A DNA stretch of 64,000 bases, taken from Psilocybe cubensis. Lineage: Eukaryota. The stretch spans positions 2,976,001 through 3,040,000 of the forward strand of contig CM039004.1 of assembly GCA_017499595.2 (NCBI GenBank). The letters are read 5' to 3'. Position 1 is the first letter of the stretch. Every line of letters begins with the position of its first letter. The notes beneath the pieces were generated by a model. That model searched no databases, was not told the origin of the DNA, and saw only the letters and a list, made by a program, of their open reading frames with translations. Below, piece by piece: positions 39,619-43,705 of this stretch. The position numbers were made by a program, and so were the translations under genes.

Positions 39619-40089
39619 ATGGCCAGGTTCTTCTTGCTCTCCACCCTCATTCTCCTCGTCGCTCAAGGTCTTGCAATGCCAACGGCCGAAGAGAGGGACG
39701 ACCCACCGGTGTATCACTGTAAGTCCTATTTTTATCCTGATCGCGATGAAACTGACGCCTTGTCGCTGCGCTATAGGTGCCAATGGCGTTGTAAGTTATT
39801 TAGGTGTAGATTCAAGTCGGATTTGAACCAGAGAAACTGACGTTGCTCGCTATTGTTACTTAGGACAACTGTAAGTGATTATAATTATCCTACATGGCAG
39901 GCACAATGATTTTAATCTACATTGCCTTTTTCCAGGTCCAGGACCTCAATGGACATGCTGTGGACCGATACTCCCAGATGTCGGCGGAATGTACGTGCCT
40001 TGACTGACTACTGCGAAATTAAGCCGATGATTGAATACTGGTATAATAGCTGTCGCAAATTGAAGCCGGGCCAAGTCTGCATCTTCTAA
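39619..40089 (+). CDS. Secreted Cys-rich CCGP peptide #6, 71 aa; exons 39619-39718, 39777-39790, 39864-39870, 39936-39990, 40050-40089
   Basis: MARFFLLSTLILLVAQGLAMPTAEERDDPPVYHCANGVDNCPGPQWTCCGPILPDVGGICRKLKPGQVCIF*. Confidence 0.9.
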
Positions 40090-40549
40090 CTGTTTGGTCA
40101 CGAAGACGAGTCAGTTGACCAGAAAGGAAGGGGGGAGAAAACGTTTTACTATACCAATATGTTCTACTACATTCTGTCACGTTCTCCAATTGACGTGCCT
40201 GATATCCCTACCACACAAATATTACCCATGAACGTCGTTCAGTGTTAAGGCTGATCTGAGTGCCAAGCCGGCGTGCTCATTACCGCAATTGGTGACTATT
40301 TCCATTTATGAACACCCAAATAAGCGCCATTAGAGGCATGTTCCACATGGCTCGAGCTTTAATTGGACAGCTATGCGAAAAACATCCAAGGGGTTGAATC
40401 AAGAAAATGTTTAAGAGAAATCACTTCGAAAAACGAAAAATCTTGTCTTTTCAAGATTCGTGGCACAACGATGGATTCAGAAAGTCTTATGACTTGTAAT
40501 GACTACGATAAACCATCCGGAAAACACATAATAGACCGAACATCGCCCT

Positions 40550-40976
40550 TTAGCAAGCCGTATTTAACGGGAGGCACCTAGAAAACGGGCGTTATTGATA
40601 CATACACGATCGATCATGCTAAAAGACTCGCATCATATGAGTAGGAATCAAACCGCAACAATGCAGTTTCTTTGATCCACCTGGGGGATAAAATAGTAAT
40701 GAGTCGGATGGCACACTATCTACTCAGCAAAAATGCGCGTTACATTCCTGAGAAATTAATGTCTTGAGTAAATAAACGTTCAACTAATCATAGATGGAAC
40801 TTACAGCATTTGTGGTGCCTTGAGAATCACAGGTCCACATAAGTGTCAGTGAAGGGTAGGTGTCAAAATTTATTCGACATACAAATTTTGTTGAGCTGAG
40901 GGAATGGGCTGGGAAGGGCGAACACCGTGGAAATTGTTACTAATAGGGTGGCAACAGTGATGGCTTTGAACTGCAT
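40550..40976 (-). CDS. Secreted Cys-rich peptide #7 (divergent, CCGL), 62 aa; exons 40976-40883, 40818-40805, 40747-40744, 40680-40632, 40577-40550
   Basis: MQFKAITVATLLVTISTVFALPSPFPQLNKICTTNAECGSKKLHCCGLIPTHMMCLPLNTAC*; the last intron needs a GC donor (GCGAGT); TATATAAG ~100 nt upstream. Confidence 0.8.
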
Positions 40977-41613
40977 TGCGAGAAGATATGGTATCGTAGA
41001 ACGACTAAATGACTAGATGACTAGAGGCTGCCAGGTAGAGTAGAGCTCTGTCAGAGAGAACGTCTAGGGTTAACTTATATACCTAAAGCTAACGCCAAGA
41101 CTACTAGTAGGCTTGCTCCGAAACATTTGCCAATTGACTGGCGGTCAAGCCTTTCTACCCCCGTTCTACATTCGAATAAGCATCTAGCTCCAAATGTCTC
41201 CCAATATACCTTGCGCGATTCATCAATGACTACTCCTTCGCTTTTAGTTCTGGCCCGATCCCGTCTCAACTGGAACTATGCATCCGACGAGTGCAGAAAT
41301 ACCCTGAGCTAAATATAGCACCCGTCACCATGAAATCAAGAGAGGAATGTGTCGCTTCGGAGAAATGCGTCCTTTGATCATCGAATAGGAGTCTGATATT
41401 CTGTAGAGCGTCTAACAGTGTTTTTGATATAGCATCCCTTCAGTCATTTCACGGGGCGTAAAAACAAGTAATATGTTGTAGAAATTTTCCTAATTCATTA
41501 ATAGCATGAATCATGAACTAGGTAATGGTAATATCATAGATATAACATTCTTATTAAACCCGTTTGATTATTCACGAGTCCTACGGTGTAAATCTCGTTA
41601 ACTAAGGATCGCT

Positions 41614-42067
41614 TTAACGAATGCACAAAAGGCCCGGGGCGCGGCAGCTGAACGCGTGAGGTCAATATTTGAATTATTTAAGGTAACATGTAAGATAACT
41701 TACTATCCACCAAGTCCATCAGAGTTTCCGTAGGGTCCACAGCAGTTGTAAGTTTCGGGACCTAAGATATTGAGAGCATTGTCAGTTAGATTCATCACAT
41801 CGCAATTGGTTGAACAATTGATTTACAGTCCTAAAATGAGACAAAACTGTGAGCAAGCAGCCAAATTTCTCGAAAATCTACTTACTGTTGCAGCAGTTGC
41901 AGGGTGGCCTAAAAGTTATCAAGCGGTTGGTCAGAGGTTGACATTCTACGCGGCATTCAATAAAATGACGTACAGCGATAAATGATTGGTCCGCCTTGAG
42001 GACTAGGGACTGCGAGAGCCTGTCCTGCAAAGAAAAGGGTAATGCTGGCTAGAAGAGTGAATTTCAT
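41614..42067 (-). CDS. Secreted Cys-rich CCGP peptide #8, 70 aa; exons 42067-41974, 41908-41886, 41830-41827, 41761-41704, 41647-41614
   Basis: MKFTLLASITLFFAGQALAVPSPQGGPIIYRCHPATAATDCPETYNCCGPYGNSDGLGGYCRAPGLLCIR*. Confidence 0.9.
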
Positions 42068-43222
42068 GGTTGCTCCGAATACTGAGATGTCGATTGAGAC
42101 TAGAATGCGCGCCGTTCTTATACCATTTCCTAGCCTACCTCTCTTCTAAAATAAGAAATTACTTGAACCCATTAAAACCATTTGGAGCTATTAAGCCGAA
42201 ACATTGCAGCAATGAAAATATTTGGCTATGTGCGCCCAGGGCGGGAACGGAAATGGGTTTGGAAACTCCAAAATGGTCATTTCTAGACCGACGTATCTAT
42301 TTTTATATCATGGTCGAGATGAATACGCGAATTTTGCTGCGACAAGAATCTCCGCATGAGAAACCGAATAACATTCTACGTTGAGCGAAGGACGTTTGAT
42401 AGATGTCTCGTGCCTTGAAATTCAGGACCAACTCAAGACTCAGGACTGGAGAAATGAATCTCCTCTCGAACTCTTCACTGCAATATCTCATAGAAGGATG
42501 TCCCTGATCTAAAAATAGAACAGGGGCACTCTCTACCGAGTACGTGCCTTGTATGCGCCGGAACTCATTGGAGTCATCCCAAAATTGAAAACTACGCGAT
42601 TAGTGGATTTGGCAATAGATTCATCCTCCTAAAGATCGTTGTCACTCAGGCAGTTCTGTAATACGTCACTGGGAATGAATATTCTCTGATTTAGCACCAA
42701 ATAGAAAGTTGAATCATTAAACCAACTAGAGTCGGTTGCTGGTCGGTAGCGTTCTCCGGTATGGTAGAGAGACTAAGAGATGCAACCCAGTAATAACTAA
42801 GCTATCTAGTTACTAGCATGATGAGTTCCCCTTTGGCTCCGCTCTACAACTAAACACGGCCTTACAGGTTCCTCAGCCGAAACCGTCCCTCAGCATAGAC
42901 GTGTATAGGTTCCTCCGGGTCGGATCATTAAGGGCTGGATTGAGTATGAGGGTGCTTCAGTCTTTGGTCTGGAGTGACTTGCTTGCATCTGGGCAATCGA
43001 GGCGGGCAGTATGAATTGGTTCCAATAATCTTTACATTCGATATTCAGTTTATTCGCGAATTATATATATCCTTCGATGGCAGTGGAATCAAAATCTGGA
43101 CCCTGACATCAATCATTACATTTCCGTGATGAGAGCATTTGCTACCATTGTATTTGAAGGCTTGAATCGCTCAATAATAATAGTAATATAGTACTATGTA
43201 TGTTAACGCCCGTGCTGCTCGT

Positions 43223-43705
43223 TCAAGCAATCAATGGACATAGTCCCGCTTCTCCTGCGTAGCAGCTATGGTACATTCCGGTCAATGAAACCGGTTCCAA
43301 ATTTGCAATACTAGGAGAAATAGTTTACCTTCCGAATCCATTAATATAGGGACCGCAGCATCGATATCCGAAGGGGCCTAGGACAAATGTGTATCAGAAC
43401 AGACTCAATTTTTTTAACATTGAACAACTTACATTTCTACAAAGATTACGGTGTGTACACATGTATTGAGCACACGGTATGACGAGATTCATAGAACTCA
43501 CCAGTGTCGTGACCACACTAGAGCCTGGTATGGTAACTCCCGCAGGACCGGAACCTAACATGGAAATATTCAATTAAAAATCGATACTAGCTGAAATATT
43601 CTTACATTGATACCCTGAAGGTGTTCCTGGTTGAATAGTTGGACTGGCAAGCACTTGGGAGGTGAACACTACCGAGGTAGCTAGTAAAAGGGATGCAAAC
43701 TTCAT
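43223..43705 (-). CDS. Secreted Cys-rich CCGP peptide #9, 82 aa; exons 43705-43606, 43554-43502, 43436-43433, 43377-43329, 43265-43223
   Basis: MKFASLLLATSVVFTSQVLASPTIQPGTPSGYQCSGPAGVTIPGSSVVTTLKCPFGYRCCGPYINGFGSCYAGEAGLCPLIA*. Confidence 0.9.

Follow-up and report, generated by a model that had tools for sequence, protein, structure and literature searches.

A 64,000-nucleotide (nt) stretch of Psilocybe cubensis DNA (assembly GCA_017499595.2, contig CM039004.1, positions 2,976,001 to 3,040,000 of the forward strand; hereafter the window, with coordinates counted from its first letter) contains nine paralogous genes of five exons each, four of them inside 39619-43705. Very probably a single inherited layout underlies all nine: these paralogues of a basidiomycete mushroom would encode secreted peptides, with a pair of micro-exons supplying the first loop of a cysteine-rich domain. 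Named here by the positions of their ATG codons, one gene lies on the plus strand (g39619) and eight lie on the minus strand (g14564, g31766, g32669, g33718, g38265, g40976, g42067 and g43705). In g39619, g40976, g42067 and g43705, the micro-exons, including three of 4 nt and one of 7 nt, are spliced into mature RNA.

Five public sequencing runs cover the region, and four were compared with the window over 31001-44000: X1 and X2, from study P1, and X3 and X5, from study P2. X3 is DNA-like, with one contig across 31078-44000 that shows zero differences and zero joints. X5 is DNA-like as well, its one contig across 34213-44000 remaining colinear with the window where contigs from X1 and X2 are spliced. 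X1 and X2, whose kind is flagged only as "RNA?", are RNA-like: they give no cover over several-kilobase stretches present in X3 and X5, and their contigs carry joints. Because both come from one study as assembled contigs, they speak to presence rather than to proportions. The aligner states an ambiguity of 1-2 nt at joints, and a cut shift was applied when splice ends were read. After this shift, 14 of the 15 listed joints in X1 and X2 end in GT..AG or CT..AC, three being introns of a kinesin gene; nine joints and 75 contig pieces exist beyond those listed and used here.

The plus-strand gene g39619 (39619-40089) encodes, from ATG to stop, a precursor of 71 amino acids (aa) in exons of 100, 14, 7, 55 and 40 nt (39619-39718, 39777-39790, 39864-39870, 39936-39990 and 40050-40089). 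Contigs from X1 and X2 join 39720 to 39936 with 19 letters between, which are the rest of exon 2, two of its nucleotides having been absorbed by the aligner, followed by GACAACT, the 7-nt exon 3, whose final T opens the Cys2 codon; intron 4 is joined from 39990 to 40050. For g40976 (40550-40976, minus strand; a 62-aa precursor), the exons measure 94, 14, 4, 49 and 28 nt (40976-40883, 40818-40805, 40747-40744, 40680-40632 and 40577-40550), and contigs from both RNA-like runs run from 40680 to 40882 with 17 letters between, equal to exon 2 minus one absorbed nucleotide plus GAAT. Intron 4 of this gene (40578-40631, 54 nt) is of the GC-AG kind, with donor GCGAGT. Its joint, 40576 to 40631 in X1 and X2, has an ambiguity of one place, and only the +1 placement gives a known pair of splice ends, GC..AG; were the intron retained, the frame would run into a TAG.

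The two remaining genes of this group, both on the minus strand, have longer second exons. The 70-aa precursor of g42067 (41614-42067) is built from exons of 94, 23, 4, 58 and 34 nt (42067-41974, 41908-41886, 41830-41827, 41761-41704 and 41647-41614). A contig from X1 only joins 41761 to 41885 with three letters between, which with one absorbed nucleotide make GACT, and introns 1 and 4 are joined as well. In g43705 (43223-43705; 82 aa), with exons of 100, 53, 4, 49 and 43 nt (43705-43606, 43554-43502, 43436-43433, 43377-43329 and 43265-43223), contigs from X1 and X2 lead from 43377 to 43502 through ATTT on the plus strand, which is AAAT in the sense of the gene, and again introns 1 and 4 are joined. 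The remaining introns within the coding sequences of the four genes match the predicted bases to within the 1-2 nt ambiguity. What the contigs carry between the flanking exons is, letter for letter, the predicted micro-exons, and those exons are therefore real in the mature RNA of these four genes. A first-pass annotation, made from the sequence alone, had argued that the genes of this family are real and had placed the four exons GACAACT, GAAT, GACT and AAAT; its coordinates for them prove exact, and spliced contigs carrying all four now establish at least four of the genes, those in 39619-43705.

RNA contigs also extend upstream of the g43705 ATG past 44000, toward an RCC1-like gene (44572-45930, minus strand), and a further 58-nt CT..AC joint lies upstream of that ATG at 43786-43843 (minus strand). 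This joint is either an intron of the 5' untranslated region or the result of overlap with, or read-through from, the upstream gene, merged by assembly.

Shared layout of the nine genes

Members of the family were located by scanning the window for the Cys-Cys-Gly (CCG) codon motif, which gave nine sites with a common splice context. Every four-intron open reading frame (ORF) was then enumerated from each ATG under loose splice rules, and the models were subsequently fixed by coordinates. The enumeration returned 15 to 6383 models per gene, of which 1 to 21 carried the cysteine pattern and, among those, 1 to 6 had intron phases 1,0,1,2. Sequence alone leaves the gene models unfixed; a 4-nt word between AG and GT easily arises by chance.

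All nine genes admit intron phases 1,0,1,2. The length of exon 2 is always 3n+2: 23 nt in g42067, 53 nt in g43705 and 14 nt in the other seven. That of exon 3 is always 3n+1, with 10 nt in five genes, 4 nt in three and 7 nt in g39619. Each of these exons is preceded by AG and followed by GT in the genome. Intron 1 splits the codon of Cys1 (as T/GT or T/GC) in eight of nine genes and lies three codons past Cys1 in g38265. Intron 3 splits the Cys2 codon, and intron 4 lies one codon ahead of Cys5, in every gene. Intron 2, exon 3 and intron 3 together span 124-145 nt, about twice the length of a single intron in these genes. The coordinate-fixed models thus bear out the phases and micro-exon lengths of the first-pass annotation in all nine genes, and the introns stand relative to Cys1, Cys2 and Cys5 as it had placed them. 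Its contention that this regularity is strong internal evidence for the genes holds only in part. Paralogues inherit their intron phases, and only the in-frame changes in micro-exon length count as independent evidence. Among the four RNA-checked genes, lengths differ only by multiples of three (14, 14, 23 and 53 nt for exon 2; 7, 4, 4 and 4 nt for exon 3), which takes at least three independent length changes, with a chance of about (1/3)^3 that all would keep frame.

The other five genes, all on the minus strand, are models. That of g38265 (37715-38265) has exons of 199, 14, 10, 49 and 37 nt (38265-38067, 38008-37995, 37920-37911, 37854-37806 and 37751-37715) and is one of four alternative in-phase models, in which exon 2 may measure 14 or 11 nt and exon 3 may measure 10 or 4 nt. 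For g33718 (33282-33718; exons 70, 14, 10, 52 and 34 nt; micro-exons 33586-33573 and 33507-33498) and g32669 (32208-32669; exons 103, 14, 10, 52 and 37 nt; micro-exons 32510-32497 and 32436-32427), a sole model has the cysteine pattern. Two models encode eight cysteines: g31766 (31296-31766; exons 118, 14, 10, 52 and 37 nt; micro-exons 31582-31569 and 31509-31500) and g14564 (14087-14564; exons 121, 14, 10, 52 and 37 nt; micro-exons 14379-14366 and 14306-14297). The latter lies within a diverged duplicate of the g31766 region, and the two proteins are 70% identical.

X1 and X2 give no cover over 31001-34038, the interval of g31766, g32669 and g33718, and g14564 falls outside the stretch compared with the runs. 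Among the contig pieces listed, the only one over g38265 is an X2 contig at 37763-37927, which crosses exon 4 and the flanking introns unspliced. A 152-nt GT..AG joint on the plus strand (37554-37705) lies just past the g38265 stop, and this joint and the contig suggest a plus-strand transcript antisense to the 3' half of that gene.

A 30-nt degenerate motif drawn from exon 4 has five occurrences in the window, where 100 shuffles gave an expectation of 0.00. A loose tblastn search of the window for more copies of the family gave nothing convincing (best E 0.027). TATA-like boxes at -130 to -40 were found for three of the nine genes against a background of 0.107, too weak to use, and a scan for branch-point motifs was uninformative.

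Encoded peptides and their public annotation

The nine genes encode precursors of 59-102 aa. All have Lys or Arg within the first four residues (at position 2 in eight, at position 3 in g39619 and at position 4 in g40976), and their N-termini, read by eye, show a hydrophobic core with small residues ahead of a likely cleavage site; these are predicted, signal-peptide-like sequences. Next comes a spacer, about 4-16 residues long in eight of nine genes and longer in g38265, and after it a C-terminal domain whose cysteines follow the framework C-C-CC-C-C. All nine genes encode these six core cysteines, and g14564 and g31766 encode an extra pair. An adjacent third and fourth cysteine is the classic framework of the knottins, or inhibitor cystine knots (ICK), in which disulfides link cysteines I-IV, II-V and III-VI, with III-VI threading the ring. 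Hydrophobins, by comparison, have eight cysteines in the pattern C-CC-C-C-CC-C, and a hydrophobin identity was rejected because the framework here is C-C-CC-C-C instead.

Loops 1 to 5 measure 5-18, 5-6, 0, 8-12 and 6-8 residues across the nine genes, those after loop 1 varying little in length. Loop 1, from Cys1 to Cys2, is coded wholly by exons 2 and 3, and the lengths of these two exons therefore fix its length, as the first-pass annotation had proposed; in the four RNA-checked genes it measures 5, 6, 8 and 18 residues. PMC6889267 gives cystine-knot spacing as Cys-X2-7-Cys-X3-10-Cys-X0-7-Cys-X1-17-Cys-X4-19-Cys. By those ranges, loops 2 to 5 fit in all nine genes and loop 1 fits X2-7 in six (5, 6, 7, 7, 7 and 7 residues) and falls outside it in the other three. 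Judged by these features, the mature products would be secreted disulfide-rich peptides, probably with a knottin-like fold.

Protein homology searches used contiguous exon-1 peptides only. The exon-1 peptide of g43705 retrieved one protein, P0002, a 78-aa "hypothetical protein JR316_0008458 [Psilocybe cubensis]", which is the sole named public protein matching the window among the searches made. P0002 is identical, letter for letter, to exons 1, 2, 4 and 5 of g43705 translated without the 4-nt exon 3. Because its model omits that exon, the last 27 residues are out of frame and contain zero cysteines, and the cysteine domain is lost; because the RNA contigs contain the four bases, the model is wrong. 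Standard gene prediction fails on these genes, as the public model of g43705 shows. The exon-1 peptide of g14564 found no protein with the right N-terminus when compared with longer proteins, that of g40976 had no match among proteins of 22-70 aa, and no correctly spliced public protein of the family was obtained from the exon-1 peptide searches. The sole match to g39619 among all representatives, P0006, was set aside as a raw ORF on a Logan DNA contig from a relative, reading through introns 1 and 2.

Divergent relatives and competing explanations

The degenerate exon-4 motif was found in 31 metagenome loci. Seventeen were rejected as chance matches in high-GC bacterial sequence, and 14 are fungal-like: their GC content is 0.42-0.47, and the motif in them is preceded by a YAG acceptor and followed by a GT donor. 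These 14 include near-duplicates and amount to about eight distinct gene types. Exon 4 is the only part that aligns with the window at the DNA level (72-88% identity), the introns being unalignable, and the relatives are therefore divergent genes. Twelve of the 14 admit a model in which exon 1 is signal-peptide-like and closes with the T of Cys1, two micro-exons follow, and the Cys2 codon is split; exon 2 measures 5, 8 or 20, 14, or 17 nt and exon 3 measures 4 or 10, 7, or 10 nt. Intron 4 lies one codon before Cys5 in 13 of 14, locus L023 being cut off. Five loci (L004, L006, L016, L020 and L030) were missed under strict splice rules and read by eye, and L022 was modelled with a GC donor. The first-pass annotation had recommended comparing intron positions in relatives, and the outcome favors the layout; these models show compatibility and conserved intron positions rather than each boundary.

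In L004, intron 2 is missing and loop 1 is encoded in one 48-nt exon (about 1082-1129 of the oriented locus), so either the L004 lineage lost intron 2 or the other lineages gained it; L031, a near-twin of L004, is truncated on its upstream side. GC-AG introns recur in the family, in the RNA-supported intron 4 of g40976 and in intron 1 of L022, whose donor is GCAAGT. Two contigs carry a pair of loci each, L011 with L012 and L023 with L024, and tandem arrays therefore exist in the relatives too. At 262-383, L011 also carries a kinesin-like stretch with 73% identity to the kinesin gene of the window at 37100-37230, which suggests that the cluster and this gene may have stayed linked.

We suggest the following account of how the layout works and evolves. 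The micro-exons, which encode loop 1, would lie between two phase-1 introns, one splitting the Cys1 codon and the other the Cys2 codon. Short introns (51-74 nt) would each be recognized singly, by intron definition, letting the spliceosome keep even four bases between two introns, the two adjacent splice sites probably acting sequentially. The micro-exons would be constitutive. The family appears to have expanded by local duplication, with loop 1 diversifying through in-frame insertions and deletions and through splice-site shifts while selection holds the frame and the cysteines. Internal AGs would set exon 3 at 10 or 4 nt and alternative donors would set exon 2 at 8 or 20 nt, which points to splice-site shift as one possible route of loop change.

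Several observations weigh against this account. In the closest pair, g14564 and g31766, whose proteins are 70% identical, conservation is no higher in exons than in introns and the ratio of nonsynonymous to synonymous differences (pN/pS) is 0.47, from which it follows that constraint outside the cysteines is weak; this is in keeping with secreted peptides that evolve fast and preserve nothing but frame and cysteines. Five of the nine genes (g14564, g31766, g32669, g33718 and g38265) rest on paralogy and intact frames without RNA support, and the RNA evidence for the others is one study with two runs of assembled contigs, which leaves room for minor isoforms. The sequence-based models of the relatives were chosen under frame and cysteine constraints, which makes them partly circular, and several loci leave two in-frame options per micro-exon. 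Both the predicted signal peptide and the putative knottin fold derive from features of the sequence, and loop 1 exceeds the X2-7 range of PMC6889267 in three of nine genes (8, 11 and 18 residues).

It is somewhat unlikely, though a serious alternative, that the peptides are disulfide-rich without being knottins, the C-C-CC-C-C framework folding with another connectivity. By the standard of classical inhibitor cystine knots, loop 4 is long at 8-12 residues, and so is loop 1 in three genes; set against this, the adjacent Cys III-IV framework is the classic one of such knots. The spacing, moreover, fits the cystine-knot ranges of PMC6889267 save for loop 1 in three of nine genes. We regard as unlikely the idea that only the expressed copies are functional and that some or all of g14564, g31766, g32669, g33718 and g38265 are silent relics or pseudogenes with an inherited structure. 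The unspliced contig that is the only listed cover of g38265, beside a plus-strand spliced joint, would suit it, as would the 3.2-kb repeat adjoining g14564 and g31766, which is better kept (91%) than the genes themselves (75%). In all five, however, the ORF is intact, every cysteine is retained, the common phases are admitted and the splice sites are plausible; the g14564/g31766 pair has a pN/pS of 0.47, and the sampling behind the apparent silence is one study with two runs.

The two micro-exons might instead form an alternative-splicing cassette, in which a joint skip or alternative in-frame sites remove or change loop 1. The arithmetic behind the isoforms raised by the first-pass annotation is sound: skipping exons 2 and 3 jointly keeps the frame, rebuilds one Cys codon and gives a five-cysteine product, while neither exon can be skipped alone because their lengths are 3n+2 and 3n+1, a loss of frame that the faulty model P0002 illustrates. 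Alternative in-frame sites can also be drawn, such as an exon 3 of 10 or 4 nt in g38265, L012, L023 and L026, or an exon 2 of 8 or 20 nt in six metagenome loci; these are no evidence for a cassette, since the enumeration kept only in-frame alternatives. The spliced contigs of all four genes carry both micro-exons, and no skipped-exon joint appears among the joints listed for any gene, although contigs drop rare variants. Each micro-exon is out of frame alone, unlike cassette micro-exons, and the five cysteines of the joint-skip product, an odd number, would leave one unpaired. We therefore consider regulated isoforms very improbable, and constitutive inclusion within one inherited layout remains the favored explanation.

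A broader and bolder extension of that layout, to which we would give only a small chance, is that paired out-of-frame micro-exons amount to a splicing-based loop-length cassette on a knottin scaffold. In-frame acceptors and donors in tandem would then let evolution, and perhaps regulated splicing, alter loop 1 with the cysteine frame untouched. Because gene finders miss such exons, public proteomes may lack a sizeable class of small secreted cystine-rich peptides from mushroom-forming fungi, or hold them in frameshifted form.

Genomic neighborhood and known systems

Introns in the window are 51-74 nt long, with GTAAGT-like donors and YAG acceptors, which marks the DNA as eukaryotic and fungal. 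The GC content of 2-kb bins is 0.42-0.59, with the majority at 0.42-0.50; the Psilocybe cubensis genome is given as 46.6 Mb with 46% GC in PMC8220353. The peptide-gene cluster has as neighbors a NACHT NLR, the kinesin, an RCC1 protein, ArgJ, whose exon has basidiomycete sequences as its closest atlas clusters, and a long terminal repeat (LTR) retroelement. The flanking NLR-type gene (NACHT/NPHP3_N/DUF7791) occupies 6600-9047 on the plus strand, and the LTR retroelement, with DUF4100, aspartyl protease and reverse transcriptase-RNase H, occupies 58762-63998 on the same strand. Three copies of a repeat about 2-3.2 kb long, with 91-95% identity, lie at 10670-13890, 27964-31140 and, inverted, 24710-26662. 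The repeat adjoins g14564 and g31766, although identity between the regions of the two genes themselves is only 75%, and is probably a mobile element younger than the duplication of those genes. The interval 16200-20000 is GC-rich (0.54-0.59), has very long ORFs on both strands (988 and 811 aa) without a Pfam match, and looks like low-complexity or repetitive sequence.

A search of main texts for cystine knot and knottin together with Psilocybe found no description of this peptide family. The family joins kinds already known, namely micro-exon genes and fungal cystine-rich peptides. What it adds is a set of RNA-backed 4-nt exons in three paralogues, one 7-nt exon and a GC-AG intron in a basidiomycete, in addition to the very small number of ultra-short fungal exons on record. 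Four dropped bases turn the precursor of a cysteine-knot-like peptide into a frameshifted "hypothetical protein" in the reference annotation, and if this is general, surveys of secretomes, effectors and peptide toxins in Agaricomycetes undercount genes of this type. The practical value lies in exposing a peptide family hidden by a four-base annotation error, the corrected models defining peptides open to expression, folding and assay.

Micro-exon genes (MEGs) of Schistosoma form a gene family whose secreted products come largely from micro-exons with lengths of 3n, singly skipped to yield variants. The Psilocybe genes likewise form a family with putatively secreted products coded in large part by micro-exons, but they differ in splicing: their micro-exon lengths are 3n+2 and 3n+1, a single skip breaks the frame, and no variant was seen. 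Animal ICK toxins, of the cone-snail O-superfamily and of spiders, share the C-C-CC-C-C framework and have signal-pro-mature precursors. The Psilocybe peptides match them in both, as a likeness of form, whereas kingdom and gene structure differ. Among fungi, PMC6889267 describes a knottin-fold candidate effector, MLP124266, of the AvrP4 family of rust fungi. By layout, the Psilocybe products resemble it as small fungal proteins, predicted to be secreted, in which a signal peptide and a spacer precede a six-cysteine domain at the C-terminus, and in belonging to a multigene family; they differ in the short spacer (about 4-16 residues) of eight of nine genes and in coming from a saprotrophic agaric rather than a plant pathogen.

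PMC11121469 states that functional microexons had previously gone undescribed in filamentous fungi. Ultra-short fungal exons are on record, of 1 nt in Fusarium CYP621A and 8 nt in a Phanerochaete chrysosporium P450, in PMC12940212, where such exons are known to defeat annotation and, in Fusarium P450 genes, an over-long apparent intron is the signature of a hidden micro-exon. The Psilocybe exons agree with that description. They consist of a few bases flanked by AG and GT between ordinary short introns, and what looks like a single intron is about twice as long as usual; without the exon the frame would be lost across a conserved motif, automatic annotation misses it, and confirmation comes from public RNA data. 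They depart from the P450 cases in that two micro-exons stand consecutively in a tiny peptide gene and throughout an entire paralogous family, and in that their lengths vary (4, 7 or 10 nt and 14, 23 or 53 nt), setting a variable loop rather than an invariant motif.

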